From an uncultured Anaerolineae bacterium (GTDB lineage Bacteria; Chloroflexota; Anaerolineae; Aggregatilineales; J027): a stretch of DNA of 44,436 nucleotides. Positions 8,459-28,733 of this stretch are shown piece after piece. The DNA lies in assembly GCA_964557285.1 (NCBI GenBank), contig CAZKZS010000005.1, positions 1 through 44,436 of the forward strand, in the 5' to 3' direction. The notes under the pieces are model-generated. The model worked only from the letters and a program-made list of their open reading frames with translations, was not told the DNA's origin and ran no database searches. Within the stretch, counting starts at the first letter, position 1. Every line of letters begins with the position of its first letter. Position numbers and translations under genes: made by a program.

Positions 8459-10246
8459 ATGCAGCAATCGGACAATGTATCTCCCGCAGAGTGGCGGTGG
8501 GTCGCTCTCATAAGCGGCCTCCTGGTAGCGCTGACTCTGCTGCCTTATGCCTGGGCATTGATTGCCTCGGTAGACTCCTCCTATACCTTCCTGGGGATTC
8601 TTCCGAATCCGAAAGATGGCGCTACGTATCTGTCGAAAATTCAGCAGGGGGTAGATGGTCACTGGCTGTTTGAACTGCGCCACACCCCCGAAAAACATGA
8701 TCCGGCAGGTTTCCATCTGTTCTATCTGATGTTAGGACAGGTCGCTAATTTGTTGGGACTGTCTACTGTAGTGATGTTTCATCTGGCGCGGGTAGCGACC
8801 AGCTTTTTTATGTTTGCTGCGTTATATAACCTCGGCGCGGCCATCTGGACTCGGATTCGCCCCCGCCGCCTGTTTTTCATTCTCATTTCTGTAGGGTCGG
8901 GGCTGGGATGGCTGGCGCTTTTTTTTAATTCAGATTCCCTTGCACCAGATTTAATTGTGCCGGAAGCCTTTCCTCTGCTGGCAGCATATACCAATCCTCA
9001 TTTCCCCCTGGCAATTGGCTGTCTGGCGCTGGTCACGGCGATTTTTATCCGTGTGTTTCGCCCCGGTTTTACCGAAGCACCTACGTCCGATAATGGCGGG
9101 CTGGTCCTAATTATTCTGTCGATTATTCTGGCAATCATTTCACCGCCCGCGATGGTGGGTCTGGGGGGGACACTGTTTTTTTATACGGTGGTACGGGGTT
9201 ACATCCTGACCCAAATGGTTCGTCAGAAACCCAAAGCGCAGCAAAAACTCAACTACACGCAGCAAACCCTTCCGATATATGGTTTTCAAGTGCCTTTGCA
9301 TGAAGCGCGTTGGGCCGCCATGTTTATTCTGCCTGCTGCTCCTCTGGCGCTGTATTATTTTATGGTGTTTCGCTTTAATGAGACTTTTGGCGCTTTTAAT
9401 GAACAAAATGTGACCCCTTCTCCCAATCCATTGTTATTCATTTTTGGTTATGGGCTGCTGCTGATTCTGGCGATTCCGGGGTTATGGCGGGCCTTTCGCC
9501 GTTTTGAACCGGACGGCGACCAGTTCATGTTTATCTGGTTTGTGGTCAATGTGCTGGCGATTTACGCGCCTTTTGCTTTACAGCGCCGCCTATTAATTGG
9601 GCTGATTATCCCCATTATTTATTTTGCGGTTCGTTCCATTGAAGATTACTGGATAGAACGTGTACCGGAACGTCTGCGCGTGCCAGCGCTAATTGCCCTG
9701 TTTGTGTTTATTCTGCCAACTCATGTATTCACGTTTGGAGCGCCGCTGGCTTTTGCAGTGTTCGATCAGGAAGCGGGCGCGGATAACCTGATTCTGGTGC
9801 ATGAGGATTATCGGAAGGCGTTCGATGAACTTCAGAAGGTGGCACAGTATGATGAGGTTGTGCTGGCTTCTCCCAATATCAGTCTGTGGCTTCCGGTGCA
9901 AACTGAACAGCGACCCGTTTACGGGCATGAGTTTGAAACCGTCCCCAACGAAGAACGCGCCGACCAGGTTTTTGATTTTTACCGGGGCAAAGATTGTGAA
10001 ACGCTGCTGGGGGAGGATTTGCCTTTCCGGGTGGCTTTTGTCCTGTGGGGACCGAAAGAGGATGACCTGGGGCTGTTAACCCGCAAAGAAGCAAAAGATG
10101 AGGGCATCCTGAACCTGGAAGATTTTGAAAAGGAAAACGGCGACAAAATTCGGCTGCCGAACGCAGATAAATGCCGGACTGTGGTCGAAGAACGGGCTGT
10201 TGAACGGTGGACATTTGGGGATGTCACCCTCTATCGCCTCCCTTAA
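8459..10246 (+). CDS. Large polytopic membrane protein 'A', putative GT-C-type glycosyltransferase with a C-terminal soluble domain; paralog of 12215-13765
   Basis: ATG 8459 is preceded by GAGGAA; the track start 8306 lies inside the permease gene. There are many hydrophobic helices. The first loop contains NPKDGATYLSKIQQGVDGHW. Shared motifs with gene C: PSPNPLLFIFGYGLL, LQRRLL and PVYGHEFET...FDFYRGK. Confidence 0.6.
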   Translation: MQQSDNVSPAEWRWVALISGLLVALTLLPYAWALIASVDSSYTFLGILPNPKDGATYLSKIQQGVDGHWLFELRHTPEKHDPAGFHLFYLMLGQVANLLGLSTVVMFHLARVATSFFMFAALYNLGAAIWTRIRPRRLFFILISVGSGLGWLALFFNSDSLAPDLIVPEAFPLLAAYTNPHFPLAIGCLALVTAIFIRVFRPGFTEAPTSDNGGLVLIILSIILAIISPPAMVGLGGTLFFYTVVRGYILTQMVRQKPKAQQKLNYTQQTLPIYGFQVPLHEARWAAMFILPAAPLALYYFMVFRFNETFGAFNEQNVTPSPNPLLFIFGYGLLLILAIPGLWRAFRRFEPDGDQFMFIWFVVNVLAIYAPFALQRRLLIGLIIPIIYFAVRSIEDYWIERVPERLRVPALIALFVFILPTHVFTFGAPLAFAVFDQEAGADNLILVHEDYRKAFDELQKVAQYDEVVLASPNISLWLPVQTEQRPVYGHEFETVPNEERADQVFDFYRGKDCETLLGEDLPFRVAFVLWGPKEDDLGLLTRKEAKDEGILNLEDFEKENGDKIRLPNADKCRTVVEERAVERWTFGDVTLYRLP

Positions 10247-12263
10247 AATTGGTGCTGCCTTTGCCTGCCTGCTGCTGATTTTCCTGATTCTAATCGGCTT
10301 TCGGTACACCAGCCTGCCATACAACCCCGGGGCAGATTTTTCCGACTCGACCATCAGCCGATGGCCGGATGCGCTGCATTTCCAGCGCAGTGTACGCGAC
10401 CATCACACTCTGCCTCTCTGGAATCCGCACCTCATGGCAGGCCAACCTTTTGCGGCAAATCCGGGAACTAAAGTCTGGTATCCTCTGACCTGGCTGCTGC
10501 TCATCTGGGATGCCGCGTTTCATATCAATATTATGATCGCGTTTCATCTGTGGTGGGGCGGCATGGGCATGTGGTTCTGGTCGCGCCGCACCGGATTGGC
10601 CGACTGGCCTGCGGTGCTGGCTGCCGTTGGATATTTACTTGCGCCCAAGTTACTGGCTCATGCAGGGGCGGGGCATCTGGATTTGTTAATAGTGATGGCC
10701 TGGCTGCCCTGGATGCTGTTTTTCCTGCACCGCACGCTGGTTTTTCCCAATGAAAGTGTATTCAATACGATTGCGCTGGCTTTTACAGGGGCAATGCTGT
10801 TCATAGGCGCGATTCAGCTTATGCTTTTTACCTTCGGGCTGAGTTTTGTCTATGCGTTATCGCTGGAACGCAAACCCCGCCGCTATAAAAATCTACTTCT
10901 GGTATCCGTTTTAGGCATAGGATTTGCGGCGGTGCAGTGGATTCCATTAGTGGAACTGCGGGAGGCGGTTTCACGGGGCGATATTCGAGCGCAGGACGCC
11001 GCTATTTTCAGCCTTGAGGCCGGACAGCTTGTAGGGATGCTCATGGGGGATCACAGTGGCAACGTTGAAACCCTGACCTATGTTGGTGTGAGCGTGCTAA
11101 TTCTGGCGCTGGCAGGGCTGATTCTGCGCCCGCGTCAAAATCGCTTCTGGTGGGCAGTGATTACTTTTGCGGCGCTGTACAGCCTGGGCGAAAATTTTAT
11201 GCTCTGGTCTGCGCTGGTGAAAATTTTTCCGCCCCTGCTGCTGTTCCGTGTCCCCAGCCGCGCCTGGTTTCTGGTGGCGCTGAGTATGCCCTATCTGGCC
11301 GGCTGGGGACTTCAGACTCTAGTAGAAAATCCACCCCATACCGCCCTCGCCCGTCTGGGGATTGTGGCGCTGGTAGGGCTGGGGCTGACATGCAGCGTGT
11401 CGAGTCTGGTCATTTTAAGCGAATTTGTCAAAACCAGCGCGATTCTTGGCACGTTTTTTCTACCGCTTACCGCCTTTTTTATCGCGCTCCTGATTTTTAA
11501 CCGGATTCCGTCGCATATCCTGATGCCCTTAATGACCATCGTTATCATTGCAGATTGTTTATGGATAGGGCAGGCAGTATTAGAAGGGCGTCCCCAAAAA
11601 GCGTGGCTGACAGAAAACCCGCCCGCGCTGCTGGAAAATCTAACCGGACGCATTTATACCCCCAGTTATGCGATTCCTCAGCAGGATACTGCTTACTGGG
11701 GACTTCAGCGTTTGGATGGCGTTGACCCGTTCCAGTTAAAAAAATTTGTCGAAAATAGCGAACATGCTACGGGCGTGCCGCGTGAGGGCTACAGCACCAC
11801 TGTTCCCGCCGAAGTTGTACTTGAACCGGATAAAGCGAATCTGGACATCCAGAACGCGCCAATGGATGCTGAACAATTAGGGCAGTGGGGTGTGGCCTAT
11901 GTTTTGACCAATTACCCGATTCACATTGATGGACTGAAACTGGCTAATCGGCAGGATGATATTTATTTTTATGAAAATACATTTTATCGAGCCTTTGATT
12001 TGAGTTGGGACGGTCCGAATCGGGTTACGCTGTCGGTAGAAAATCCTGATATTTATCCTGTTGTAAATGCCTCTGGCTGGCAAAAAGAAAATGGGGAAGC
12101 TGTCAAGAAGAATTTATTAAGCCTGCCTGCTGAAAATACAACTTTCGTTTACCGCCCCGTCGGAATCTCTATCGGATTGGCGGTGAGTGGTCTTACTTAT
12201 GGAGTGGCGCTGCTGTGGCTGGTAGGGGTGTCTGGCTTTTTGCGCTTCTCGTCGCTGCGCTAA
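10221..12263 (+). CDS. YfhO-like polytopic membrane protein 'B' (putative GT-C glycosyltransferase)
   Basis: ATG 10221 (MSPSIASLKIGAAFACLLL...) overlaps the end of gene A by 26 nt. The N-terminal signature LPLWNPHLMAGQPFAANPGTKVWYP and the motif AWLPWMLFF parallel gene D. The family call is by motif only. Confidence 0.6.
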   Translation: MSPSIASLKIGAAFACLLLIFLILIGFRYTSLPYNPGADFSDSTISRWPDALHFQRSVRDHHTLPLWNPHLMAGQPFAANPGTKVWYPLTWLLLIWDAAFHINIMIAFHLWWGGMGMWFWSRRTGLADWPAVLAAVGYLLAPKLLAHAGAGHLDLLIVMAWLPWMLFFLHRTLVFPNESVFNTIALAFTGAMLFIGAIQLMLFTFGLSFVYALSLERKPRRYKNLLLVSVLGIGFAAVQWIPLVELREAVSRGDIRAQDAAIFSLEAGQLVGMLMGDHSGNVETLTYVGVSVLILALAGLILRPRQNRFWWAVITFAALYSLGENFMLWSALVKIFPPLLLFRVPSRAWFLVALSMPYLAGWGLQTLVENPPHTALARLGIVALVGLGLTCSVSSLVILSEFVKTSAILGTFFLPLTAFFIALLIFNRIPSHILMPLMTIVIIADCLWIGQAVLEGRPQKAWLTENPPALLENLTGRIYTPSYAIPQQDTAYWGLQRLDGVDPFQLKKFVENSEHATGVPREGYSTTVPAEVVLEPDKANLDIQNAPMDAEQLGQWGVAYVLTNYPIHIDGLKLANRQDDIYFYENTFYRAFDLSWDGPNRVTLSVENPDIYPVVNASGWQKENGEAVKKNLLSLPAENTTFVYRPVGISIGLAVSGLTYGVALLWLVGVSGFLRFSSLR

Positions 12264-13765
12264 CCACGCTGCCCTATCTGGTCGGATGGGCGTCGGCGGG
12301 CGATGAGTGGGTTTTTAACGGCTTCACGATTGGCGTGGAAGATGGCAATGCTTACCTGGGCAAAATGCGACTCGGCGCACGTGGGGAATGGAAATTTTTC
12401 CTGTTTTACTCGCCAGAACAAACAGACAGCGCTTTTGGTTTATATCTTCCTTACATCGCATTGGGGCAGGGTGTCGGATGGGTGGTGGATGAAAATTCGC
12501 CGGAACTGGTCACGGCGCTGGCAATTGCTTTTCAGCTATTCCGTTTTGCTGCCAGTTTTTTGCTCATTCTGGCGACGGATGCTTTTATTGGAGAATTTAT
12601 CTCTGCGCCGCGCACGCGCTGGCTTGCGCTGATTCTGGTCACGTTGGGGGGTGGGTTGGGCTGGATTCTGCTGCTGGCGGGATACCAGCCCATTGAATTT
12701 TATATTCCCGAAGGCTTTTCCTTCCTGCTGATTTTTGCCCTTCCGCATCTCGCCCTTGCGCGGGCAGCACTTTTAATCGGCTTCATTTATATATTCCGCG
12801 CGTTAAAAAATCAGCGCTGGCAGGCGGCTGTCATAGCAGGGCTGTTGTGGAATATCGTCGGGCTGATGGTCACGTTTTATCTGGCGGTGATTTATGCGCT
12901 GCTAGGGGCGTGGGGGCTGGCACTCTGGCTTAAAAGAAAGCATTTTCCCGTTTCCTTTGCGCTGATGGGAGGAATCGCTGCTGGTTTCACCGCGCCCCTG
13001 TTTCTCTACAACACCTGGCTTTTTTCCACGAATGAAGCGTTTAAGCAGTGGTCGAGTCAGAATTATCTGCCCTCCCCTCATCCGATTTATTACGTCTTTG
13101 GATATGGTCTGCTGGCGGTGCTGGCAGGAGTAGGCGGCAGATGGGCATGGAAAAAAGGCACGGAAAAACATACGCTGCTGGTCGGATGGGTGCTGGTTGT
13201 GCCGATTCTGGTGTATTTACCGATTAATGTGCAGCGCCGCCTGCTGGAAGCCGTTTTTGTCCCTCTCGTGATTCTGGCCGTTGTAGGGTTGAAATTACTG
13301 ACACGCCATCGCTTCAAACTGGCACAGCGGTTGCTGCTGGTGGCGCTGCTGCCTTCCATGATTCTGCTGTGGGTAGGCAGCATTTTTACCTTAACTGTGC
13401 CGGATTATCCTGCCTTTCGCCCCAAAACCGAAACCCGTGCCATGGACTGGCTGGCAAAACACGTTGAACCCAATGCGGTGGTGTTGGGTGCGGCAGGGAC
13501 AGGAAATTATCTTCCCGCCAGAACCAATCTACGCCCGTTTATGGGGCATGGGCCGGAAACCCTTTATTCCCGTGAAAAAGCGGACATCGTAGAGAAATTT
13601 TATAAAGGCCAGCTTTCGCCCGCCGAAAGGCAGCAGTTGTTCAGCGATTTTAACATTCGATACGTGATGTTTGGGCCGTTAGAACGTAAAATCAATGAAG
13701 CGTGGAGCAGCGATTTAACGCTCATCTATGACCACGGCCAGTACCAGATTTTTGAGGTTAAATAG
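12215..13765 (+). CDS. Large polytopic membrane protein 'C', paralog of 'A' (putative GT-C-type)
   Basis: GTG start at 12215 overlaps gene B by 49 nt. Motifs: VEDGNAYLGKMRLGARGEW, PSPHPIYYVFGYGLL, VQRRLL and PFMGHGPET...VEKFYKGQ. All are collinear with gene A. Confidence 0.6.
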   Translation: MAGRGVWLFALLVAALTTLPYLVGWASAGDEWVFNGFTIGVEDGNAYLGKMRLGARGEWKFFLFYSPEQTDSAFGLYLPYIALGQGVGWVVDENSPELVTALAIAFQLFRFAASFLLILATDAFIGEFISAPRTRWLALILVTLGGGLGWILLLAGYQPIEFYIPEGFSFLLIFALPHLALARAALLIGFIYIFRALKNQRWQAAVIAGLLWNIVGLMVTFYLAVIYALLGAWGLALWLKRKHFPVSFALMGGIAAGFTAPLFLYNTWLFSTNEAFKQWSSQNYLPSPHPIYYVFGYGLLAVLAGVGGRWAWKKGTEKHTLLVGWVLVVPILVYLPINVQRRLLEAVFVPLVILAVVGLKLLTRHRFKLAQRLLLVALLPSMILLWVGSIFTLTVPDYPAFRPKTETRAMDWLAKHVEPNAVVLGAAGTGNYLPARTNLRPFMGHGPETLYSREKADIVEKFYKGQLSPAERQQLFSDFNIRYVMFGPLERKINEAWSSDLTLIYDHGQYQIFEVK

Positions 13766-13770
13766 ATAGT

Positions 13771-16083
13771 ATGAATCGTCGCGGAATTGCGACATGGTTT
13801 CCACTGGCGCTTCTGGCGGGGATGCTGGTGGTCTTTTTTGCGCCTTTGATTGTGGGGACACGTTCGTTGTTCTGGGGACTGCCCGCGCTGCAATTTTACC
13901 CCTGGCGCGAATTTGCCTTTGATGAACTGCGGGCAGGCCGGATTCCTTTTTTGAATCCCTATAACGGCGGTGGCGCTCCCCTGCTGGCGAATTATCAGAC
14001 GGCTGTTTTTTACCCCCCGAACTGGCTGCATCTTATCCTACCTGATGCCCATGCCATGAATTTAATTGCGGTGCTGCATATTTTCTGGGCGGGTTTTGGC
14101 ATGTGGAAATTGACGGGGCAGCTTGGGATTCGGGATTTTGGGCGGGGAGTCAGCCTGCTGGCCTACGCGTTTGCTGGATACAACATTGCCCGTATGGGGT
14201 CATTCCCGACAGCCAGTACAGCCGCCTGGCTTCCCTGGTTGTTATGGGTGCTAACAGGGCTGCTGGAAAAACGTACCGCAGGTTATGTGGGGCTGCTCGG
14301 TCTGATTTCGGCGATGCTGCTGCTGGCCGGACACGCGCAAACGGCGCTTTATGCATTTTTGGCCGCCGGGTTATATACCCTCTGGCAGCTTACCACCCTG
14401 CCGCGCCCTGTCCGCTTCAAAGCCTTTCTGATGGCAGGCGGCGGGGTGCTGCTTGGCACGGGTATTGCTGCCACGCAACTTTTATTCACGCTGGAATTGT
14501 TGGCCGAATCACAGCGTTCGGGCGGGGTCGATTACAACGAACTGACCAATCTTTCTTTTGCTCCGCTTCGGCTGCTGGTACTGGTCATGCCAAACTTTTT
14601 TGGGAGTCCGGTGGATGGATCGTATTTGACCCCCGACCGGGGGGTGTACTTTGAGGACATGATTTATATCGGCATCGTGCCATTTATTGCCGCCATTGCC
14701 GCCATTATTGGCTGGTTGCAACGGCGCACCCTGCTTGACCACTGGCAAAGTTATCGCAGTGTGCCGTTCTGGATGCTGCTTGTCGGGGTTGGATTTCTGC
14801 TGGCGATGGGGAAATACGGACCAGTTTACCGTACCTTGTACGACTATGTGCCGACCTTTGATGCCTTCCGTGAACCCGTGCGCTGGATGATCTGGCCGGT
14901 GTTTGCCCTGTGTGTGCTGGCCGGAATCGGGGTTCAGAACTGGGGCCGCAGCCCCCGCATTTTTTTCTGGTCACGGCTTTTAGCGGCGGGCGGTCTGGGA
15001 TTTGTCGTGATAGGGCTGGTTGTGCAGCAGACCAGTTCATCAGTAGATGCAACCGCGTCGGTTTTATTAGATGCTCTGACCGCTTTTGGGTGCTGGTTTG
15101 CGGGTGCAGCCATTCTCACGCTGGCTCAGCCGGATGAAACGTGGAATATCCCGTTCAGGCGCTGGGAGATGGCAGTCATCATTTTTGTGATGGCCGACTT
15201 GCTGTGGGCAGCACAGGGTTTAAACCCGACAGTGCAGCAACAGTTTTTCCGGGATGCCAGCGTGACCTATCCACAGGGGCGGCTGTACTGGTATAAGGAT
15301 TATGAAGAAGAAATCAAATTTGAAAAAACATTTGATTTAGCCGACTACCGCACCGCGACCCTGAACTGGCCGTATGTGCGTCACTCGCTGCTGCCCAATT
15401 TAAATATGCTGGATGAAGTTTCTCTTTATAACAATTTCGACCCCCTGCTGCCGCGTTATCAGGCCCGCTACATGGAACTGATTGAAAAATTAGGCCGTCG
15501 GGGAGGAAATCTACTTCGGGCGGCGGGCATTGGGCAAACGTTGGGGCCGGTGCGTCCTAACGGATGGGAAAAAATTCAGGGGGATGACCCCAGTTTTGAA
15601 GCGCCACAGGAGCCGCCTCTTGTCTGGCTAGTACCGCGTGCGATATGGGCAGCCGATGATGACACCGCCGAAGCCGAACTCCTTAAAGAAACCTGGAATC
15701 CGGATCAGGCAGTGATTCTGAGCGCAGAAGCGCCAACCGACGCGCTGGTACTGGAAACCTCCCCTCCCCTTGAAGAAGTGAGTTTTTTTGAAGTGGTGGA
15801 GGATACACCGACTCAGAAAAAATACCGTGTTGTAACCGATGGAAGCGGGTATCTGGTGCTGGCAACTTCATGGTATCCGGGATGGAGTGTGCATGTGGAT
15901 GGGGAAAAACAGACCCTTTACCGTGCGAATCTGGCATTTATGGCCGTTGAAATTCCTGAAGGCGGCGGTGAAGTCACCTTCCGCTATTTTCCATCCCTCA
16001 GTATTCCAGGGATTTTATTCAGTTTGCTTTCGCTGTTTGTCTGCATTGGTTTAATCGCCTTTAGTCAATTCCGTCAGCAATAA
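13771..16083 (+). CDS. YfhO family membrane protein 'D' (putative GT-C glycosyltransferase)
   Basis: 770-aa ORF with the N-terminal signature IPFLNPYNGGGAPLLANYQTAVFYPPNW and many TM helices. The C-terminus has a YfhO-style domain, SWYPGWSVHVDGEKQTLYRANLAFMAVEIPEGGGEVTFRYFP, followed by a final TM helix. Confidence 0.7.
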   Translation: MNRRGIATWFPLALLAGMLVVFFAPLIVGTRSLFWGLPALQFYPWREFAFDELRAGRIPFLNPYNGGGAPLLANYQTAVFYPPNWLHLILPDAHAMNLIAVLHIFWAGFGMWKLTGQLGIRDFGRGVSLLAYAFAGYNIARMGSFPTASTAAWLPWLLWVLTGLLEKRTAGYVGLLGLISAMLLLAGHAQTALYAFLAAGLYTLWQLTTLPRPVRFKAFLMAGGGVLLGTGIAATQLLFTLELLAESQRSGGVDYNELTNLSFAPLRLLVLVMPNFFGSPVDGSYLTPDRGVYFEDMIYIGIVPFIAAIAAIIGWLQRRTLLDHWQSYRSVPFWMLLVGVGFLLAMGKYGPVYRTLYDYVPTFDAFREPVRWMIWPVFALCVLAGIGVQNWGRSPRIFFWSRLLAAGGLGFVVIGLVVQQTSSSVDATASVLLDALTAFGCWFAGAAILTLAQPDETWNIPFRRWEMAVIIFVMADLLWAAQGLNPTVQQQFFRDASVTYPQGRLYWYKDYEEEIKFEKTFDLADYRTATLNWPYVRHSLLPNLNMLDEVSLYNNFDPLLPRYQARYMELIEKLGRRGGNLLRAAGIGQTLGPVRPNGWEKIQGDDPSFEAPQEPPLVWLVPRAIWAADDDTAEAELLKETWNPDQAVILSAEAPTDALVLETSPPLEEVSFFEVVEDTPTQKKYRVVTDGSGYLVLATSWYPGWSVHVDGEKQTLYRANLAFMAVEIPEGGGEVTFRYFPSLSIPGILFSLLSLFVCIGLIAFSQFRQQ

Positions 16084-17489
16084 TGTCTCGTAACGCGCCT
16101 CAACTTCAACTGTCGGAACGCCGTTTGCTGCTGCGTCTGGGGGATGCCGTTTGCAATTTTTTAGCGGTGCTAATTGCCCTGCGAATCTGGGCATTTGTAG
16201 CGGGACGGGATTACAATCTCGGCTTTATCCTGGCAAATTTCTTCTGGTTTGTGGTGCTGGAAACGCTGTGGTTTATGATTGCCAGCGCCAATGACTTTTA
16301 TGATTTAAAAATCGCCTCGCATGGGATACGTTCGGCGACCATCCTGTTCCAGATTGTGATTCAAATTACCTTTGTGTATCTGGTCATCTTTTTTGTGTCC
16401 CCACGAGATGCTCTGCCGCGTTTATTCATTCTTTATTATGCGATTACTTCTATTCTGCTGATTACCCTGTGGCGGGCATGGCGGCCTTTTTTAATCGGCT
16501 GGACGTATCAGCCACGACGGGCGCTGGTGGTGGGCAGTGGATGGGCGGCGCGGGCAATTCTGGAAGTGCTGCAAACAGAAGCCCGAAATGAGTACGAAGT
16601 AGTTGGCGTGGTATCACACCCCAGTACCCATGCTGAAGTTGACCAGACGGTGACGGTTTTACGCGACGGCAAGTTGCTGGCACAAACCGCCGAATCGCTC
16701 AATGCCTCCGAAATTATTCTTGCCTATGGCAGCGAAATGCCGGGGGATATGTTTCAGGGGCTGATGGATGCTTACGAACAGGGATACACCATTACACCGA
16801 TGCCGATTCTTTATGAACAGGTGACAGGACGTGTTCCCATTGAACACGTCAGCGAATCAAGCTGGATGGTGGTGCTGCCTGTAGAAACCAGTACCCTGTT
16901 TAACCCCTATCCCCTGCTTAAACGGCTGATGGATATTATTTTATCGCTGATTGGCTCGCTGATGTTTGCGCTGCTGCTGCCGTTTATCGCGCTGGCCGTA
17001 ACATTGGACTCGCCGGGACCGATTTTTTACCGTCAGGAGCGTGTGGGGAAAGGGGGCAAGCCGTTCAAAATTCTGAAATTAAGAACGATGATTCCTGATG
17101 CAGAAAAAATGAGTGGCCCCCAGTGGGCTGCTGATAATGACCCGCGTATCACCCGCACCGGAAAATTTCTGCGCCGAACCCGTCTGGATGAACTACCACA
17201 GCTTATCAACGTACTGCGCGGCCAGATGAGTCTGGTGGGCCCACGCCCCGAACGGCCTTTTTTTGTGGAAAAACTTTCGCAGGCCATCCCGTTTTACCGC
17301 ACCCGTAATATTATTAAACCCGGCGTAACCGGATGGGCGCAGGTGAAGTACGGATACGGCAATTCGGTAGAGGATGCGCTGGTGAAACTGCAATACGACC
17401 TGTATTACATCCGTCATCAAAGTATTCTTCTGGATGTGCTGATTCTGCTCCGCACTATCGGGAAAATGCTCAAATTCGCAGGGACATAG
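16083..17489 (+). CDS. Polyprenyl-phosphate phosphoglycosyl transferase (large WbaP/WcaJ-type 'bacterial sugar transferase')
   Basis: N-terminal TM helices and a Rossmann-like segment (RRALVVGSGWAARAI). The C-terminal catalytic domain reads LKRLMDIILSLIGSLMFALLLPFIALAVTLDSPGPIFYRQERVGKGGKPFKILKLRTM ... DELPQLINVLRGQMSLVGPRPERP. TAATG overlap with gene D. Confidence 0.88.
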   Translation: MSRNAPQLQLSERRLLLRLGDAVCNFLAVLIALRIWAFVAGRDYNLGFILANFFWFVVLETLWFMIASANDFYDLKIASHGIRSATILFQIVIQITFVYLVIFFVSPRDALPRLFILYYAITSILLITLWRAWRPFLIGWTYQPRRALVVGSGWAARAILEVLQTEARNEYEVVGVVSHPSTHAEVDQTVTVLRDGKLLAQTAESLNASEIILAYGSEMPGDMFQGLMDAYEQGYTITPMPILYEQVTGRVPIEHVSESSWMVVLPVETSTLFNPYPLLKRLMDIILSLIGSLMFALLLPFIALAVTLDSPGPIFYRQERVGKGGKPFKILKLRTMIPDAEKMSGPQWAADNDPRITRTGKFLRRTRLDELPQLINVLRGQMSLVGPRPERPFFVEKLSQAIPFYRTRNIIKPGVTGWAQVKYGYGNSVEDALVKLQYDLYYIRHQSILLDVLILLRTIGKMLKFAGT

Positions 17490-17493
17490 GTTT

Positions 17494-18648
17494 TTAGCCA
17501 ACCGTTAAAAACAGCAGAAGCACTATCCATAGCGTGCTGTACATCAACGGGCGGCGTAGATTTCGTTCGGCGCTGTACAACACCACCATCAGAACCAGAC
17601 CAGGAATAAAACGGAAAATCCCTAAAAATTCGCGGTAGGTGGAAAACGGCACGAACGGCATAATAGCGGCGCTGGTAAAAAGCAGACAGGTATAGAGGGA
17701 GATGTTGTGCTGTCGAAAATCCTGCACACTTTCCCACAGCCCCCACAGCGTTGGCAGCAGCACCGGAATCCCGACCAGCAGCACCCCTAACAGCAAAAAA
17801 GCAGCAAGCCCGCCTTCCGTCCAGATTTTGATCACCCCTAAAAAAGGGATTATTTCAAAGGGTGTCGCTTTTGCACCGCCTGAACCGATGCCTATTTCTC
17901 CCAACCAGATAGAGAGATACCCCTGCCAGAGCAAAAACGGAATACCTACTGTCAGAATCAGGAAAAATGCCTCCTGCCAGCGCCGATTGATGCCTAAATA
18001 CAGAACAAATCCGGCGGTCATGATGCCTGTGGTTTCTTTGGCGAGTCCTGCCAGCCCTAAGGCAGCAGCCATCAGCCAGAACTGCTGATGTTGAAACGCC
18101 CAGATACCCACGACGACCAGCCCATAGGCCAGAGGTTCGCTGGTGCTTAACCGCGTGGAAATGACCACTCCAAAAAAGAGGCCGTAGCTGAGAGCGAACC
18201 AGCGCTTACGGCCTTCTTTTTCAAGCAAATCTTCCAGCAGATAGGTGCTGAAAAGCAGGGACGCACCGTTGACCAGTACAAACACCCAGGGGATAAGTGC
18301 TTCTGTGCCAAAACTCAGCCCGTACCCCAGACTCGGCAGCAAAATGCGCTGGTAGCGGTATGCGGGCGCGTCGATGCACGGGGCAGCATGGGCAGGGTCG
18401 CGGGCGATGTAATAATTAAACTGCCCATCATAACCTTCGATTTTTAATTGTTCATCCAGCGTTGCGTCGTCAGGAATATCACAGGTTTCGCCATCTTCCC
18501 CCGTACACTGGCTAAAACAGCTTCCGATAGCAACAAACGTTTTCGGGTCATGGTGATTGCTGAAAAAAATAAATCCGAGATACCCCACCAGTACCAGCGC
18601 CACCACCATCCAGGGGCGGACGTTACGCAAAGACATTTTCCCAGTCAA
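17494..18648 (-). CDS. Polytopic membrane protein 'M' (possible GT-C-like glycopolymer enzyme)
   Basis: 384-aa ORF. One TM helix is followed by a Cys- and Asp-rich loop (CFSQCTGEDGETCDIPDDATLDEQLKIEGYDGQFNYYIARD ... YRYQRILLP) and then about 9 hydrophobic helices. The function is inferred only from architecture and context. Confidence 0.4.
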   Translation of the reverse strand: MTGKMSLRNVRPWMVVALVLVGYLGFIFFSNHHDPKTFVAIGSCFSQCTGEDGETCDIPDDATLDEQLKIEGYDGQFNYYIARDPAHAAPCIDAPAYRYQRILLPSLGYGLSFGTEALIPWVFVLVNGASLLFSTYLLEDLLEKEGRKRWFALSYGLFFGVVISTRLSTSEPLAYGLVVVGIWAFQHQQFWLMAAALGLAGLAKETTGIMTAGFVLYLGINRRWQEAFFLILTVGIPFLLWQGYLSIWLGEIGIGSGGAKATPFEIIPFLGVIKIWTEGGLAAFLLLGVLLVGIPVLLPTLWGLWESVQDFRQHNISLYTCLLFTSAAIMPFVPFSTYREFLGIFRFIPGLVLMVVLYSAERNLRRPLMYSTLWIVLLLFLTVG

Positions 18649-19033
18649 TATCCTTCGTCAGGCCGGAGCATAAAGTTTCGAGAAACGCCAGGGCTTCTTC
18701 GGCTGTTTCGCAGTCCTTATCCCGCACATTTTGCGTATCCGCAATTTTGGCGAATACTCCCGCCAGCGCTTTGGTTTTAGCATCACTGGAAAACGAGCAG
18801 CCACCCGAATATTTATCACTGCGGAGCAAAATTTGTATCAGTTGGCGGAGCGCTTGCAGGTCGCTAATGCGTCCCTTCCTCAGGTCGGAAATGAAGTAGA
18901 GTTTTCCTTCAGCTTCGTCCAGCGCTCGTTGAATATCCTTTAAAAAGGCGTCCCGTTCTTTTTCGTTTGGGGTTTTTTCCCAGCGAATATACACCAGTTC
19001 CTTAGAGAGCTTTTGGAATCGATACGCTGTCAT
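18623..19033 (-). CDS. Hypothetical cytoplasmic protein (136 aa)
   Basis: ORF without TM segments. Its stop region overlaps the start of gene M by 26 nt. I recognise no family. Confidence 0.5.
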   Translation of the reverse strand: MTAYRFQKLSKELVYIRWEKTPNEKERDAFLKDIQRALDEAEGKLYFISDLRKGRISDLQALRQLIQILLRSDKYSGGCSFSSDAKTKALAGVFAKIADTQNVRDKDCETAEEALAFLETLCSGLTKDIDWENVFA

Positions 19034-19125
19034 TTTACCTGCCCCCAGAAGCTGCCCTCAGCGTAACATGAAAATGCTTATTCAGCCAATGCATATTTTC
19101 AGGTAGCATTAAACATGGAGGGGTC

Positions 19126-20601
19126 ATGCTCACGATTGAACGCCTGATGTTGTGGATTTTATTTATTTTGCTGTTCACAATGGCCGTGCGTGTGCCAGTG
19201 GATACCGATACCTGGTGGCATCTGCGAAGCGGCGGCAGCATTTTAGACACAGGGGAAATCCCCAAAACAGACTCTTTTTCCTTCACCAAAAACGGAGAAA
19301 CCTGGGTGGACCACAGTTGGGGCGCTCAGATGCTGCTGACCTTAAGCTACCGCATTACGGGTGGGGCAGGCAAAACAGATGACGGAGGCGTGGTCGGGCT
19401 GGCGCTGTTTACGGCGCTGCTTGGCACGGCAGGCATGGCCTTTGTTTACCGGATGTGCGCGGGAACGGTCTACAGTCGTGCCTTTGTGATGGTGTTTGGG
19501 GCAGCTACCGCCGCCGTATTCTGGTCGCCGCGCCCGCAGATGTTTTCTTTTTTCCTCAGCGCAGTCGTTTTATATTTGCTCTACCTGTATAAATTTCACC
19601 GTCGGGATTACCTGTGGGCGATTCCGGTGCTGATGGCGCTGTGGGTGAATTTGCACAGTGGGTTTGCAATCGGGTTTATCCTCCTGATAGGTTTTATGAT
19701 AGGGGAAGCGGTAGGGAATCTGTTTAATCCTCAGGATGAATACGCGGTTCACTGGCGGCGGTTGGGTAAAATCGGGCTGGTATCTGTGGTTTCTGTGCTG
19801 GCCTTATCCATCAACCCCTACGGCCCGCGTATGATTTTATATCCGTTTGAAACGGCAGGATTACAAACCCTCAATCTGCTGATTCAAGAATGGCAGTCGC
19901 CAAATTTTAAACTTCCGCAAACCTGGCCTTTTCTGATGATGCTGGCAGCCACGATTTTGTTTGCCGGGCTGACCCAAAAACGCATGATATGGAGTGACCT
20001 GAGTTTAACCATCGGAACGATGCTGCTGGCGCTCTGGGCAGGGCGGAATATTGCCGTGTTCGCGGTGGCAGCCACTCCTGCCCTTTCGCGGCTGGTCGAT
20101 GCCTATTTAGACGAACGCGGCTGGCGGCTGCGCCCCATGAAAAGTATCAAAGGCACAAAGCTGCTCATCAATTGGATTTTGCTGGTGGTGGTTACTTTTG
20201 GTGGGCTGGCAAAAATTACTTCGGATTTGCTGCCGGAAAATGTCGAAAAAGTGCAGAACGAGCTTTTGCCCCTTAAAGCAGCCGCCTATCTGGAACAAAA
20301 TCCGCCGCAGGGGAATATGTTAAATTCCTATAACTGGGGCGGACTGCTCATGTTTTTACTGCCGGAAATTCCCGTTTTTGTGGATGGGCGTACTGATTTG
20401 TATGGAGATGATTTTTTGAAAGATTACTTTGGCACTTATCTAGGAGCATCGGACTGGCGGGAACTTTTAAATGACTATGCCATTCAGACGGTCGTGGTTG
20501 AAGACGAAACGGCGCTTGCGACCCTGCTGCGAGAGGATAACCAGTGGCAGGTGGTTTATGAGGATGAGCAGGCTGTGATTCTGGAAAAAATCAGTGACTA
20601 A
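19126..20601 (+). CDS. Polytopic membrane protein 'E' (putative GT-C-type; DxD directly after TM1)
   Basis: ATG 19126 is preceded by GGAGGGG. TM1 is followed by VPVDTDTWWHLRSGGSILDTGEIPKTDSFSFT. There are many helices and a C-terminal soluble segment VFVDGRTDLYGDDFLKDYF... Confidence 0.55.
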   Translation: MLTIERLMLWILFILLFTMAVRVPVDTDTWWHLRSGGSILDTGEIPKTDSFSFTKNGETWVDHSWGAQMLLTLSYRITGGAGKTDDGGVVGLALFTALLGTAGMAFVYRMCAGTVYSRAFVMVFGAATAAVFWSPRPQMFSFFLSAVVLYLLYLYKFHRRDYLWAIPVLMALWVNLHSGFAIGFILLIGFMIGEAVGNLFNPQDEYAVHWRRLGKIGLVSVVSVLALSINPYGPRMILYPFETAGLQTLNLLIQEWQSPNFKLPQTWPFLMMLAATILFAGLTQKRMIWSDLSLTIGTMLLALWAGRNIAVFAVAATPALSRLVDAYLDERGWRLRPMKSIKGTKLLINWILLVVVTFGGLAKITSDLLPENVEKVQNELLPLKAAAYLEQNPPQGNMLNSYNWGGLLMFLLPEIPVFVDGRTDLYGDDFLKDYFGTYLGASDWRELLNDYAIQTVVVEDETALATLLREDNQWQVVYEDEQAVILEKISD

Positions 20602-21808
20602 AAACGACCTTTTTTCCGATGTTCGTGTCCTGCTGTATTTGTTTATCAGCCTGCGGGTGATTTTATTGATTGTGTATCAGCCGCAGTTAGTGAAGGAGGC
20701 TGAGGTAGAACGTGGCCTCACCACCCTGGGCGATTACCATGAACATTATGAATTTTCCCGCAGCATTACCTCAGAAAATTTGCCCTACCGCGATTATTGG
20801 GTTGAATTTCCTCCGGTCTGGCCGGCTCTAACAGCGCTGGCAGCCGTTTTTTTCAAAAATTTCACCAACTGGGCAAGTTTTATTTTTCTCATTATGACGG
20901 CCTTTGATGTGGGCAATCTGATTCTGGTGCGGAAACTGGGCATTTTTTTTCATGAAGCAGAAGTAGGCGTCGCCCTGAGTTGGGTTTATGCGCTGCTGGC
21001 CGCACCCCTTATTATGACGGCATGGAATTTTGAAAGTATCGTCATATTGACCCTGCTGATGGGTTTCTGGTTGTGGACACAGGAGAAACTTCATCTTTCT
21101 GCCGCGTGGATCGCGCTGGGCATCCTGACCAAATATCTCCCCGTGCTGATTTTGCCTGTGGTCTGGCGGTTTATGCCGCGCCGGAATGCCATTTTTTACA
21201 CGGCGGTGAGTCTGGGTTTAACGCTGCTGGTACTGATTCCTCTCATAGTATGGGGCGAGGGAATGGCGGTAACTTCGCTTACGGTGCAGGCTGAAAAACC
21301 TTCCTATCAGACCGTATGGGCGCTTATTGATGGAAATTACGCAACAGGTAGTTTCCCCGGTGGTCAATCCCGTTATGATGCCGATGCGGAAGCTGTCCAA
21401 CGCCTGGGAAATGAGGCTATTATCCCCGTTTGGCTGCGCTTGATACCCTTTGCCACCTTCGGGTTATGGTTGTTCATGCGCCCCATGCCTGCCGATGAAT
21501 CGGTCCAATTTGCTTTTCTGAGTGTAACTGTACTTCTTTTTATGCTGTGGTCGCAGGGCTGGTCGCCGCAGTGGACGGTGATCCTGCTGCCGCTTTTGCT
21601 GCTGAATTTTCCGTCACGGTTGGGGGTGCTGGCGGCGGTCACGCTAATGGTGGGAACATTTATCGAGTACCCGATGTTGTTTCGTTATGGGGCGGAATCC
21701 GGCAATGTCATTGGGGAAGCCTATCGCCTGCCCTTTGCCATGCTGATTCTGGCCCGGACAGTTTTTCTGATGGGGTTTGTTGGCGCATTAACGGGAAAAC
21801 TCAAATGA
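20594..21808 (+). CDS. Polytopic membrane protein 'F', GT87/DUF2029-like (putative polyprenyl-phosphate-sugar dependent glycosyltransferase)
   Basis: GTG start at 20594 overlaps the stop of gene E. The motif GDYHEHYEF...LPYRDYWVEFPPVWPAL resembles the DUF2029/GT87 first-loop pattern. About 10 hydrophobic helices. Confidence 0.5.
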   Translation: MTKNDLFSDVRVLLYLFISLRVILLIVYQPQLVKEAEVERGLTTLGDYHEHYEFSRSITSENLPYRDYWVEFPPVWPALTALAAVFFKNFTNWASFIFLIMTAFDVGNLILVRKLGIFFHEAEVGVALSWVYALLAAPLIMTAWNFESIVILTLLMGFWLWTQEKLHLSAAWIALGILTKYLPVLILPVVWRFMPRRNAIFYTAVSLGLTLLVLIPLIVWGEGMAVTSLTVQAEKPSYQTVWALIDGNYATGSFPGGQSRYDADAEAVQRLGNEAIIPVWLRLIPFATFGLWLFMRPMPADESVQFAFLSVTVLLFMLWSQGWSPQWTVILLPLLLLNFPSRLGVLAAVTLMVGTFIEYPMLFRYGAESGNVIGEAYRLPFAMLILARTVFLMGFVGALTGKLK

Positions 21809-23325
21809 GCCGACGCGATTATTTTATCCTTATCATCATCGGTTCAGTGATAAGTTTTCTCGTGCTGGCACAACGAGATTCTCCGGGTTATACCGATGCT
21901 TATTATTATTACAATGCGGGCGCAAAATTTGCTGATGGGGACGGGCTGACGGATATGTACCTGTGGAATTACGTCAATGCGTCAGACAGCCTCCCTACGG
22001 AAAGCCACCGTTACTGGATGCCGCTAGCATCAATTGTAGCGGCCCTACCGATGATTCTGCTGGGAACAAATTTTCACGCGGCAGCGCTGGCTTTTGTGCC
22101 GTTTTATCTTGGACTGGCCTGCCTGGGCATGGTTTTAGGGGCAAAATTGGGAAAAAATCGTCGCCATGCGTGGGCTGCCGGACTCAGCGTTTTGTTGGGC
22201 GGCATGTATTTCCCCTTTTATTTCACCACAGATACCTTTGTTTTATTTGGGCTAATCGGTGCGGTAGCTTTAACCGCCTTCGGTTTTGGGCGTGAATCCC
22301 ATCACTGGAAATGGTATGCGCTGGCAGGCATATGCAGCGCTCTGGCTCACTGGACACGGGCAGACGGGTTGTTATTTTTTATCGTCGGGCTAATGGTTCT
22401 CTGGTGGCCGATTCCGATGGAAAATAGGGGGAAAAACACAACTGTGTTTATCCTTGCCTATACTGTTACTATGCTGCCCCTCTTTATCCGTAATCTGGCC
22501 GCTTTTGGCGCTCCCCTGCCCACAGGTGGAATCGGGACGGCTTTTTTAAAAGGCTATAATGACCTGTTTAGCTATCCTGCCGAATGGCCGATGTCCGATT
22601 TTTTGGACTGGGGGATGGGCAATATTGTTCAATCACGGATTGAAGGGCTTACAGGCGCATTTGGCACATGGCTGGCGGTGGAGGGGTTTGTCTTTTTAAC
22701 TCCTCTAGCGTTGTATGCCCTTTGGAAGCGGCGGCACGAGGGCTTTTTTGCTGGCCTTATCTGGTATGCGGTGGGGCTGCATCTTGCCATGTCGCTGGTT
22801 TTTACCTATCCGGGCATACGCGGCGGGCTGTTTCATTCTTCAACGGCGCTGCTGCCGTTCTGGGTAGCGCTGGGGCTGGTTGGTTTAGACGATGTGATTG
22901 CCAGACTCGCCCGATTTCGCAAATGGAATACCCGCGAAGCACAAACGGTTTTTGGCACAGCCGTTGTCTTTTTGCCTTTGTTTCTGGGCCTCTGGTCATT
23001 TAGCCAGCAGCAGTGGAATCAACCAGATTTAAAAAAATATGTGGAAAATTTGCCCACCAATGCCCGTCTGATGGTCAACGACCCCGCAGAATGGTATTAC
23101 TGCACGGGGCGAATCGGTGTCACGCTGCCCGATGAATCCCTGGAAACCGCTTACTCCATTGCACAGCGCTATTGTATTCAGTATTTAATCATTGATGAAA
23201 ATGTGACCGACCCATTGAAGCCGCTTTTTGAGAAAAAAATGACACTGCCGCCGTTTTTAACCGAAATCCAGACGTTTGATGAAGGGGTTCAGGTGTATGA
23301 ATTTTCCGTTAGCTGCACACCGTGA
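21805..23325 (+). CDS. Polytopic membrane protein 'G', GT39/PMT_2 (ArnT-like) candidate
   Basis: ATG 21805 forms an ATGA overlap with the stop of gene F; the track start 21547 lies inside gene F. Motifs: SPGYTDAYYYYNAGAKFADGDG after TM1, and HWTRADGLLFFIVG. C-terminal soluble domain. Confidence 0.5.
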   Translation: MSRRDYFILIIIGSVISFLVLAQRDSPGYTDAYYYYNAGAKFADGDGLTDMYLWNYVNASDSLPTESHRYWMPLASIVAALPMILLGTNFHAAALAFVPFYLGLACLGMVLGAKLGKNRRHAWAAGLSVLLGGMYFPFYFTTDTFVLFGLIGAVALTAFGFGRESHHWKWYALAGICSALAHWTRADGLLFFIVGLMVLWWPIPMENRGKNTTVFILAYTVTMLPLFIRNLAAFGAPLPTGGIGTAFLKGYNDLFSYPAEWPMSDFLDWGMGNIVQSRIEGLTGAFGTWLAVEGFVFLTPLALYALWKRRHEGFFAGLIWYAVGLHLAMSLVFTYPGIRGGLFHSSTALLPFWVALGLVGLDDVIARLARFRKWNTREAQTVFGTAVVFLPLFLGLWSFSQQQWNQPDLKKYVENLPTNARLMVNDPAEWYYCTGRIGVTLPDESLETAYSIAQRYCIQYLIIDENVTDPLKPLFEKKMTLPPFLTEIQTFDEGVQVYEFSVSCTP

Positions 23326-24844
23326 CGGAATATTTCTTGTACTGGCGGCGCTGGTGGTCAGTTTTTTTGTTTTTCTGGCTGACCAGCGCCACGACATTGG
23401 CTTTCCACTGGATGATTCATGGATTCATCAGACCTACGCCCGCAATTTAGCCAACTACGGCGAATGGTCATTTGTGCGGGGCGAACCAAGCGCCGCTTCC
23501 ACTGCCCCCCTGTATTCGCTGCTGCTGGCGGTTGGGCATGGGCTGAATCTCGCGCCATATTTTTGGGCGCATCTCCTGGGGGTGATCAGCCTGACGGTAG
23601 GCGCGATTTTTGCCGCCCGCATTAGCCAACAGCTTTTTCCTAAAATACCCTATATTGGTTGGGCAACCGGATTGTCGGTGCTGCTGTCGTGGCATCTGGT
23701 CTGGGCGGCGGCGTCTGGCATGGAAACCATGCAGTTTATGGCCTTGAGTCTGGGGGTCATCTGGCTCACCTTCCGCGAACTGGATGAAAATCTCAGCGCT
23801 AAATCTGTTTTTTTACGGGGTGCTGTTCTGGGCGGGATAGGCGGGCTGCTTTTCCTGACGCGACCGGAAGGAATTTTACTCGTGGGGCTGGCTGGACTTT
23901 TATGCCTTGCGGTTTTTGGTCTAACAAACCGTTATTTTTTATGGGCATGTGGTGTAGGGATATTCTGGCTGGTGATAGTTGCCCCGTATGTGGCCTATAA
24001 CTATGACCTGACGGGCGACCTGCTCCCCAGTACCGCCGCCGCCAAAATCGCGGAAAACGCGCCCGCCCGTGCGGAGTCGATTCCGACCCGTTATGCAAAA
24101 CTGGCTGCCCCGCTTTCCGCCGGAGCGCAGTTGATGGGGCTGCCCGGCATCCTCTGGGGAATCTGGCTGACGCTGAAAAAAATACGGGGAAACCGAAAAT
24201 ATTTGCTTTTTTTGCTGCCTTTGCTCTGGGCATTAGCCCATATCACGGTGTATGTGCTGCGGCTGCCCGCCCCTTATCAGCATGGACGTTATGTGATGCC
24301 TGCGCTGCCGCCGCTTTTGCTATATATGGCGGGCGGCCTGCTGGATATGGTACAGCGTTTTAAATTTTCCATGATAGGACGGGTTTTAACGCGCACACTG
24401 GCACTTGGCACAGCGCTGACCCTCCCCGGCTTTTTGTGGATTGGCGGGCAGGCGTATGCCAATGATGTGCGAATCATCAATACGGAAATGGTAGAAACGG
24501 CGAGGTGGGTCGCTGCCAACGTACCGCCTACTGATATTTTTGCGGTGCATGATATTGGCGCATTGGGTTATTTTGCCCCGCGCCCGATCATTGACACAGC
24601 AGGGTTAGTCACCCCCGAAATTGTGCCTCTGCTGCTGAACGGGGAAAAAATGATGGCCTTTTTGTGCGAAAAAAATGCCAGGTGGCTGATGGTGCTGCCC
24701 GACCAGCGATTAGTTCCTGCCGATGACCCACGCCTTTCTCTGGCCTATGAATCGCCTTATGATTTTGCAGACAAGGCACGCGGCGGCGCGGATGAACCCT
24801 GGAAAATGCGGGTTTATCGGCTCAACTGCGATTCAAACCATTGA
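23297..24844 (+). CDS. Polytopic membrane protein 'H' (putative GT-C-type; DD motif after TM1)
   Basis: ATG 23297 (MNFPLAAHRDGIF...) overlaps gene G by 29 nt. TM1 is followed by FPLDDSWIHQTYARNLANYGEW. There are many helices and a C-terminal segment VHDIGALGYFAPRPIIDTAGLVTPE. Confidence 0.5.
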   Translation: MNFPLAAHRDGIFLVLAALVVSFFVFLADQRHDIGFPLDDSWIHQTYARNLANYGEWSFVRGEPSAASTAPLYSLLLAVGHGLNLAPYFWAHLLGVISLTVGAIFAARISQQLFPKIPYIGWATGLSVLLSWHLVWAAASGMETMQFMALSLGVIWLTFRELDENLSAKSVFLRGAVLGGIGGLLFLTRPEGILLVGLAGLLCLAVFGLTNRYFLWACGVGIFWLVIVAPYVAYNYDLTGDLLPSTAAAKIAENAPARAESIPTRYAKLAAPLSAGAQLMGLPGILWGIWLTLKKIRGNRKYLLFLLPLLWALAHITVYVLRLPAPYQHGRYVMPALPPLLLYMAGGLLDMVQRFKFSMIGRVLTRTLALGTALTLPGFLWIGGQAYANDVRIINTEMVETARWVAANVPPTDIFAVHDIGALGYFAPRPIIDTAGLVTPEIVPLLLNGEKMMAFLCEKNARWLMVLPDQRLVPADDPRLSLAYESPYDFADKARGGADEPWKMRVYRLNCDSNH

Positions 24845-24952: not shown

Positions 24953-24956
24953 CAGG

Positions 24957-28705: not shown

Positions 28706-28733
28706 TGTGATTTTCTCCTTCACCAGGCTATCA

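Follow-up and report, generated by a model that had tools for sequence, protein, structure and literature searches.

What do ten adjacent membrane-protein genes in an uncultured Anaerolineae bacterium build, and do they build it together? The genes lie between positions 8459 and 24844 of a 44,436-nucleotide stretch of DNA (contig CAZKZS010000005.1 of assembly GCA_964557285.1, positions 1 to 44,436 of the forward strand), which we call the window. A preliminary description had read them as a glycan assembly locus made almost entirely of glycosyltransferases (GTs) of the GT-C type behind one priming phosphoglycosyl transferase (PGT). GT-C enzymes act at the extracytoplasmic face of the membrane and use lipid-phosphate-linked donors (review PMC8035078). 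We find that nine of the proteins, here named A to H and M, are very probably GT-C enzymes arranged in conserved modules. Three of them, A, C and E, resemble oligosaccharyltransferases (OSTs), a likeness that the preliminary description had missed.

All 11 open reading frames (ORFs) between 8459 and 24844 have a start codon and one terminal stop, and their coordinates were reproduced from the ORF list and the translations. By Kyte-Doolittle hydropathy, every one of the ten large proteins has 5-11 strong hydrophobic segments and the product of the small ORF has none, so the early count of ten polytopic proteins and one non-membrane protein of 136 amino acids (aa), S136, is right. The N-termini carry Arg or Lys in eight of the nine GT-C proteins; B has none before its first transmembrane segment. 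When the ten window proteins were scanned against the curated libraries Pfam and NCBIfam, only D, PGT and M scored above cut-off. Because the window proteins rarely matched directly, orthologs from related loci were used as well.

The fold was compared directly for two proteins. C (12215-13765, forward strand; 516 aa) and E (19126-20601, forward strand; 491 aa) were modelled with AlphaFold2 (pLDDT 94.9 and pTM 0.93 for C; pLDDT 93.7 and pTM 0.92 for E). In both models the helices form a bundle and the first loop is structured; C also carries an alpha/beta domain at its C-terminus. When C was compared with the PDB by Foldseek, the top 22 matches (E 1e-8 to 1e-5, query TM-score (TMq) 0.50-0.58) were all STT3, AglB or PglB, except that ranks 15, 17 and 19 were taken by DPY19 entries. 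AftA and ArnT followed after these 22. Every match of C up to E 0.02 was a GT-C enzyme, and the non-GT-C matches had probabilities of 0.21 or less. For protein E, the matches with E values from 3.5e-8 to 8e-4 were DPY19, STT3, PglB, ArnT, AftA, AftD and ALG9, and the best non-GT-C match had E 0.12 and a probability of 0.08. For both models a probability of 1.0 was reached by GT-C enzymes only (TMq 0.44-0.61), and transporters stayed at or below 0.21. The C-terminal domain of C gave a weak profile match to the C-terminal globular domain of AglB-S2 (3vu0, E=0.039), and that of E matched the same structure by Foldseek (E=0.03, target TM-score (TMt) 0.50). A (8459-10246, forward strand; 595 aa) is a paralogue of C (BLASTP E=9e-27; hhalign probability 100%), and the GT-C fold is assigned to it because of this paralogy with a modelled protein.

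Searches with the sequences of A, C and E reached no described family. None of the three window proteins matched Pfam (E<=1) or NCBIfam, and the E orthologs likewise had no match in Pfam. Their profiles reached no full OST chain among the PDB sequences; the sole match was the weak one to 3vu0 given above. A profile search with the C family found no bridge to a known family among the best 150 of the matches listed, which were all close relatives. Both families are large. An exhaustive profile search with the C family gave 6356 clusters at 50% identity for A and C together. The database holds 862 homologs of C without a precomputed Pfam domain, the few named ones being 'hypothetical protein' from Chloroflexi/Anaerolineae, and 2087 homologs of E (clusters at 90% identity), also without a precomputed Pfam domain and either unnamed or 'hypothetical'.

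The alignments of these families show many fixed positions. In 32 orthologs of A the invariant residues are D53, H108, R111, E169, H181, Q375-R376-R377, H490 and E534. In the ortholog alignment of C, the invariant acid of the first loop is D43. In E the invariant residues are D26, D28, W30-W31-H32, E255-W256, R307-N308, N403-W404-G405-G406 and V419-D420-G421-R422, of which the Glu-Trp pair sits in a lower-confidence loop of the model. The C-terminal domain of OSTs carries a WWDYG motif that binds the Ser/Thr at position +2 of the sequon. This motif is not conserved here: at the aligned site the C family has 'xxTGN' and the E family has 'YNWGG', and nothing in A corresponds to it. The 'YNWGG...VDGR' of E resembles the 'WWDYG...(L)VD(G/N)' of OSTs, a form also seen in the 3vu0 alignment; the likeness serves as a lead and not as a test. 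A, C and E are OST-like in fold, yet the sequence tests do not place them in family GT66.

B (10221-12263, forward strand; 680 aa) and D (13771-16083, forward strand; 770 aa) form a second pair of paralogues (BLASTP E=4e-21; hhalign 100%). D matched Pfam YfhO (PF09586) with 48.9 bits against a cut-off of 28.5, in an alignment confined to residues 680-750, and its orthologs have precomputed PF09586 matches. The C-terminus of D also gave weak matches to the PgfM1 and PgfM2 models of NCBIfam, with 24 bits against equivalog cut-offs of 1400. The window protein B had no YfhO match and only a weak, sub-threshold match to PTPS_related, and 13 of its 22 orthologs matched Pfam YfhO (best 2.5e-13). D42 in the first loop of B is invariant. 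The YfhO assignment made for D and B in the preliminary description is borne out by these matches. Fusions of B and C also occur in nature. Protein P0399 (1391 aa; locus L092, 8001-12176; metagenome-assembled genome (MAG) GCA_027021705.1) is encoded by a stand-alone gene, with a TMEM260_N-type GT-C gene a few kb away, and P0501 (1216 aa) is a second, independent fusion. Such fusions argue that the YfhO-like and OST-like partners work together, although there is a small chance that they are frameshift artefacts at the naturally overlapping B/C junction.

The remaining four GT-C proteins appear to be GT87-like or PMT_2-like. M (17494-18648, reverse strand; 384 aa) matched NF046093, the 'AZOBR_p60025 family cell surface glycopolymer formation protein', at 1.6e-60 (204.2 bits, cut-off 150) over the whole 232-position model. 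M itself had no Pfam match (E<=1), and about 20 of its 120 best homologs carry PF09594 (GT87). F (20594-21808, forward strand; 404 aa) likewise had no match in Pfam (E<=1), nor any in NCBIfam, and two of six orthologs matched GT87 (best 1e-6). For G (21805-23325, forward strand; 506 aa), five of nine orthologs matched PMT_2 (PF13231; best 4.2e-11), and the G orthologs of loci L090 and L091 have precomputed PMT_2 matches; the window protein matched nothing in Pfam. The GT87-like and PMT_2-like labels first given to F and G are supported through their orthologs. H (23297-24844, forward strand; 515 aa) is a distant paralogue of G (hhalign probability 97%, E=1.9e-11, 455 columns). It had no Pfam match and matched NF047440 (LA_3751/LA_3752 putative GT) at 7e-6, below cut-off; G also matched this model weakly. 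The invariant first-loop acids are D74 in M, D47 and E71 in F, D31 in G and D39-D40 in H. When A, C, E, F, G, H and M were searched as family profiles against the PDB sequences, nothing significant emerged; matches to AKT kinase and pp71 in these searches were set aside as chance.

The tenth membrane protein is the priming enzyme. PGT (16083-17489, forward strand) is, as had been proposed, a priming phosphoglycosyl transferase; it is polytopic and of the WbaP/WcaJ/EpsB type. It matched Bac_transf (PF02397) at 9.7e-67, CoA_binding_3 (PF13727) at 9.6e-11 and TIGR03025 with 391.7 bits against a cut-off of 295.55. Its scores for the WcaJ and WbaP models were below cut-off, so that these models do not fix its sugar specificity. 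PGT lies 3' of D in many related loci, and M is convergent with PGT here and in many of them. In locus L004 (8879-11143), on a 3.68-Mb Anaerolineae contig, the M homolog stands directly downstream of a Glycos_transf_4 gene of the WecA/MraY type, far from the A-C-D-PGT-E-G-H locus of the same genome. M thus adjoins a priming enzyme in both arrangements.

Is the gene arrangement conserved? We collected three genome loci, 80 metagenome loci and several contigs reached through homologs of M, C and E, using tblastn and ORF mapping. The 80 metagenome loci were picked solely by a relative of D (29-60% identity). D was taken as the anchor because M homologs with identities of about 50% or below are located away from the cluster. 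The closest genomes are two MAGs of uncultured Anaerolineae, WBUL01000001 (82% identity in D) and CAZXCU010000020 (71%), and the whole gene order is preserved in both (loci L001 and L002). The recurrent order across the set is a reversed HEAT-repeat gene and a reversed Zn-ribbon gene in most loci, then A (B) (C) D (GT2) PGT, M on the other strand, (Wzy_C) and, further on, E F G H, where brackets mark genes that are not always present. Among the D-selected loci with enough flanking sequence, A or C is found no more than 6.5 kb upstream of D in 29 of 31 and B in 22 of 31. Downstream of D, PGT occurs within 4 kb in 11 of 37 loci, M within 4 kb in 13 of 37, and any of E to H within 10 kb in 8 of 25. 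The E-H part occurs alone in L090 and L091 as an operon E-F-G-G'-H, and a compact form, A-C-D-PGT-x-E-G-H, is found on the 3.68-Mb contig.

These data show that the locus consists of two separately conserved modules side by side. Module 1 is A-(B)-(C)-D-(GT2)-PGT/M, anchored by D, and module 2 is E-F-G-H, which begins with E. The two are joined in the lineage of the window and in some others. The early picture of ten membrane-protein genes in a row holds in that the genes are contiguous and their order is conserved, but the row is a juxtaposition of two units. The arrangement is more than chance. The preliminary description had named an order found in no relative, a placement of most proteins in non-GT-C folds and a match to a characterised locus as outcomes that would count against it. 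Many relatives keep the order, the searches by profile and by structure assign the proteins to GT-C and not to transporters or proteases, and no such characterised locus or paper was found.

The reading frames are tightly packed. A and B overlap by 26 nt, B and C by 49 nt, and D and PGT by 1 nt; E and F overlap by 8 nt, F and G by 4 nt, and G and H by 29 nt. PGT and M are separated by 4 nt in the window. The overlapping and abutting frames suggest three transcription units, namely A-B-C-D-PGT on the forward strand, S136-M on the reverse strand and E-F-G-H on the forward strand. A tRNA-Met(CAT) gene (24881-24953, forward strand) lies directly 3' of H and closes the E-H unit. Its sigma-70-type promoter (24841-24868) matches the consensus TTGACA-16-TATAAT at 12 of 12 positions and starts within the last codons of H. 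A strong terminator with a 13-bp stem follows the tRNA gene at 24954-24983 and may also serve a convergent ABC-importer operon. A promoter scan gave 11 matches against 17.6 expected, which is no excess over chance.

Related loci carry genes that bear on donor supply. In L001, the closest relative, a 345-aa membrane GT2 is encoded between D and PGT (12282-13319), and an S-adenosylmethionine (SAM) methyltransferase gene, absent from the window, lies between PGT and M (14751-15482). The GT2 between D and PGT was probably lost in the window lineage, because the same position is kept in the distant loci L007, L009, L010 and L031. A 248-aa GT2 occurs in eight related loci, with best matches to PpgS, ArnC and a dolichyl-phosphate (Dol-P) hexose transferase, all polyprenyl-phosphate sugar synthases. 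A protein with Wzy_C and TPR domains occurs in nine.

What, then, would these modules do? The priming enzyme, the nine GT-C-type proteins and the conservation of their genetic coupling are shown; beyond that, from what is established about GT-C enzymes, we lean towards the view that A to H, M and PGT form an extracytoplasmic pathway for the assembly or transfer of an envelope glycoconjugate. PGT would make a polyprenyl-diphosphate-hexose on the cytoplasmic face. Module 1 couples this enzyme to the OST-like A and C, the YfhO-like B and D and the GT87-like M, and module 2 adds a string of four GT-C enzymes, the OST/DPY19-like E, the GT87-like F and the PMT_2-like G and H. Once the primed lipid has been flipped, the GT-C enzymes would lengthen the glycan, polymerise it and/or transfer it, all at the outer face. 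Their donors would be polyprenyl-phosphate sugars from GT2 synthases, which relatives encode within the locus and which this genome would have to encode elsewhere. A, C and E would be the best candidates for steps on diphosphate-linked glycans, either en-bloc transfer or polymerisation, and the GT87-, PMT_2- and YfhO-like members would add single sugars. With enzymes that work at the outer face from lipid-linked donors, the glycan chemistry would for the most part be extracytoplasmic. Its predicted product is a surface glycoconjugate or a secondary cell-wall glycoconjugate.

Several observations weigh against this reading. Other genomes carry the two modules, and also M, apart from each other, so the data do not call for a single assembly line. 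The fold comparison covers C and E, with A placed through paralogy and B, D, F, G, H and M through sequence profiles. Between the families, compared by hhalign in local mode, only A-C, B-D and G-H gave strong links, and the others were weak (40-86% probability). The motifs quoted in the preliminary description are in the translations, most of them at invariant or nearly invariant alignment columns. The acidic first loop that it ascribed to all nine proteins holds an invariant Asp or Glu in eight of the nine families. The exception is D, whose first outside loop (residues 29-100) has no invariant Asp or Glu in 47 orthologs; at the site where 27 of the 47 have Glu, the window protein has Thr. 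The 44-kb window, searched also by tblastn, contains no donor synthase, GT2, nucleotide-sugar enzyme or flippase, and no Wzx, Wzy or Wzz/polysaccharide co-polymerase (PCP) gene. The lack of a GT-A enzyme or polyprenyl-phosphate-sugar synthase had been noted before; it stands for the window but not for the related loci, which carry GT2 genes and in some cases Wzy_C. No flippase is found among the recurrent neighbours of those loci, and a Wzx was seen in none of them.

Different readings of the same genes have to be weighed. That the cluster is accidental, or that its members are transporters or other non-GT proteins with a shared polytopic scaffold, is now very hard to maintain and is largely refuted. 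Six of the ten window proteins lack a direct Pfam match and the profile links between families are weak, but synteny persists to about 30% identity, orthologs match GT-C Pfam models, first-loop acids are invariant, and Foldseek gave a probability of 1.0 (E to 1e-8) solely for GT-C enzymes, with transporters at or below 0.21. A better supported alternative, though an improbable one, is that the GT-C enzymes decorate independently, each within its own system of GT2, flippase and GT-C, and are clustered for co-regulation without a single product. The modules and single genes (M, E-H and the fused B-C) are found separately in other genomes, loci differ in composition (A-D, A-B-D, C-C-D, extra PMT_2 copies), and characterised bacterial YfhO and PMT_2 enzymes decorate teichoic acids and wall polysaccharides (PMC8035078). 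However, the pairing of A or C with D is very tight (29 of 31 loci), B-C fusions exist and the reading frames overlap inside each unit. The priming PGT within the unit has no role in pure decoration, and in every locus seen the GT-C enzymes outnumber the cognate GT2 synthases.

The OST likeness raises another alternative, protein glycosylation, which we regard as possible but unlikely. PGT would start a lipid-diphosphate glycan, and A, C and/or E would transfer it en bloc to secreted, surface-layer (S-layer) or sheath proteins. The YfhO-, PMT_2- and GT87-like enzymes would add O- or C-linked sugars, as PMT, DPY19, TMEM260 and the streptococcal PgfM1/PgfM2 do. OSTs use a diphosphate-linked donor, as PGT would supply. 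In structure, C and E come closest to N-oligosaccharyltransferases and to the C-mannosyltransferase DPY19, the two proteins share the AglB-type C-terminal domain, and D weakly matches the protein-glycosylating PgfM1 and PgfM2. The E family also has a DxD in its first loop and 'YNWGG...VDGR' where OSTs have WWDYG...(L)VD(G/N). Against this, the sequon-binding motif is not conserved in A and C, Pfam scans and PDB profiles reached no OST apart from the weak 3vu0 match, and a candidate acceptor protein was found neither in the locus nor among the recurrent neighbours of related loci. ArnT, AftA and AftD, which have non-protein acceptors, are significant structural matches as well.

Among known systems, a close likeness is to the mycobacterial and corynebacterial pathways for arabinogalactan, lipomannan (LM) and lipoarabinomannan (LAM), with WecA, the Emb, Aft, Mpt and PimE enzymes, and Ppm1/PpgS. 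Both combine a lipid-diphosphate-sugar primer with many GT-C enzymes that would act outside the membrane from polyprenyl-phosphate sugars. F and M are GT87-like, C and E match AftA and AftD in structure, and relatives of the locus encode a PpgS-like GT2. The Chloroflexota locus, however, lacks the Emb/Aft families GT53, GT85 and GT89 and is built on YfhO-like and OST-like cores. Its primer is a Bac_transf and not a WecA-type enzyme, and it has no GlfT-like cytoplasmic polymerase and no conserved ABC exporter.

With STT3, AglB and PglB (GT66), the OST-like proteins share the GT-C_A fold with a C-terminal alpha/beta domain; C has its best structural matches in these enzymes, and E has some of its best there too. 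They also share the acidic first loop, with a DxD in E, and the genetic link to an enzyme that makes a diphosphate donor. In contrast to GT66 enzymes, A, C and E are much shorter (490-600 aa), match no STT3 model and lack WWDYG, and they occur as three paralogues in each locus, always alongside YfhO-like proteins.

Multi-component transmembrane glycosylation systems such as CsbB-GtcA-YfhO, GtrA/B/V, Csd and Gac/Rgp use YfhO- or PMT_2-family GT-C enzymes, like D, B, G and H, and a GT2 synthase, to which a gene in the relatives is similar; their general logic is set out in PMC8035078. These systems have one GT-C enzyme per GT2 and GtrA flippase and decorate a polymer made elsewhere, whereas our locus has nine GT-C enzymes and a priming PGT, with no GtrA and no GT2 in the window. 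The Pgf cluster of Streptococcus mutans (PgfS, PgfM1, PgfE, PgfM2) also holds two YfhO-like GT-C paralogues in one operon. Here PgfS and PgfE are absent, and OST-like, GT87-like and PMT_2-like members are present in addition.

The eukaryotic N-glycan pathway in the lumen of the endoplasmic reticulum (ER), with ALG3/9/12/6/8/10 and OST, offers a further, conceptual analogy: a lipid-diphosphate glycan would be extended from lipid-phosphate sugars by several GT-C enzymes and passed to an OST-type GT-C, and ALG9 is a significant structural match of E. The locus shows no sequence-family membership with that pathway, and its bacterial priming enzyme comes from another superfamily. One could go further and propose that the widespread Chloroflexota OST-like enzymes (A/C and E), unrelated to PglB in sequence, work with PGT and the YfhO-, GT87- and PMT_2-like GT-C enzymes in an 'ER-lumen-like' pathway in which a polyprenyl-diphosphate glycan is built from polyprenyl-phosphate sugars, nearly all of it outside the membrane, and then transferred en bloc to, or polymerised onto, protein or cell wall. 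We consider this proposal speculative and doubtful. If true, it would add a third route to surface glycans beside the Wzx/Wzy-dependent and the ABC-transporter-dependent ones.

A literature search over about 8 million papers, which also covered Chloroflexi envelope glycans, found neither the locus nor NF046093 described, and nothing on OST-like proteins of Chloroflexi; the only related remark was that GT83 enzymes are abundant in sponge Chloroflexi. The family composition, in which OST-like and YfhO-like core proteins are paired, the primer is a Bac_transf and Emb/Aft families are missing, is unlike that of all characterised loci found. GT-C-based extracytoplasmic glycan assembly is known in general; the locus contains two large GT-C families for which we found neither a Pfam or NCBIfam model nor a published description. 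Sediments, sludge and sponges harbour abundant Anaerolineae and related Chloroflexota. To our knowledge, their envelopes have barely been characterised, and the known bacterial en-bloc glycan transferases are PglB and the unrelated Wzy_C-type ligases. The locus is a concrete and widely conserved candidate for the building of surface glycans in Anaerolineae. If its OST-like members handle diphosphate-linked glycans, the range of bacterial en-bloc transferases would be wider, and use in glycoengineering would be possible. On a conservative reading, the results still allow thousands of membrane proteins that lacked an annotation to be given one, and they define a set of genes that can be tested.

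The genes around and between the modules differ among lineages. S136 (18623-19033, reverse strand) lies upstream of M in one unit and encodes a soluble protein without a transmembrane segment or a Pfam or NCBIfam family. It is kept at its position only in L001, L002 and L006 (35% identity in L006), and its membership in the system is uncertain. In L088 the gap between PGT and E holds a different small HEAT-like protein of 241 aa. Upstream of A, an ABC ATPase (6400-7170, forward strand; DrrA-like) and an ABC-2 permease (7170-8402, forward strand; ABC2_membrane_3 and ABC_perm_CPBP-like) probably stand outside the system; the DrrA-like and ABC_perm_CPBP-like scores were below cut-off. The preliminary description had made this pair the exporter of the glycan. 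We rejected that role because the pair stands beside A only in the two closest relatives, L001 and L002, and is not Wzm/Wzt-like. It also lies outside the 8459-24844 span. In most related loci (L008-L088) the place upstream of A is taken by divergent genes, a CT398-like coiled-coil/Zn_ribbon_9 gene in 32 loci (for example L020, 2884-3591) and a large HEAT-repeat gene in 22 (for example L055, 1103-3526). The window has neither gene, and the ABC/ABC-2 pair stands there instead.

A few features further downstream were also noted. Outside the locus, the window has just two carbohydrate-modifying candidates, a PIG-L-family de-N-acetylase (31563-32366, reverse strand) and a NodU/CmcH-type carbamoyltransferase (41463-43241, reverse strand), which lie 7-17 kb downstream. 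A complete tmRNA gene (43609-43995, forward strand; Rfam RF00023, 125.8 bits) was not reported by ARAGORN. The ABC importer convergent with module 2 consists of three genes (24982-28723, reverse strand) for a binding protein, a fused permease and an ATPase. It lies behind a thiamine pyrophosphate (TPP) riboswitch (28786-28896, reverse strand) and is presumably a thiamine uptake operon.

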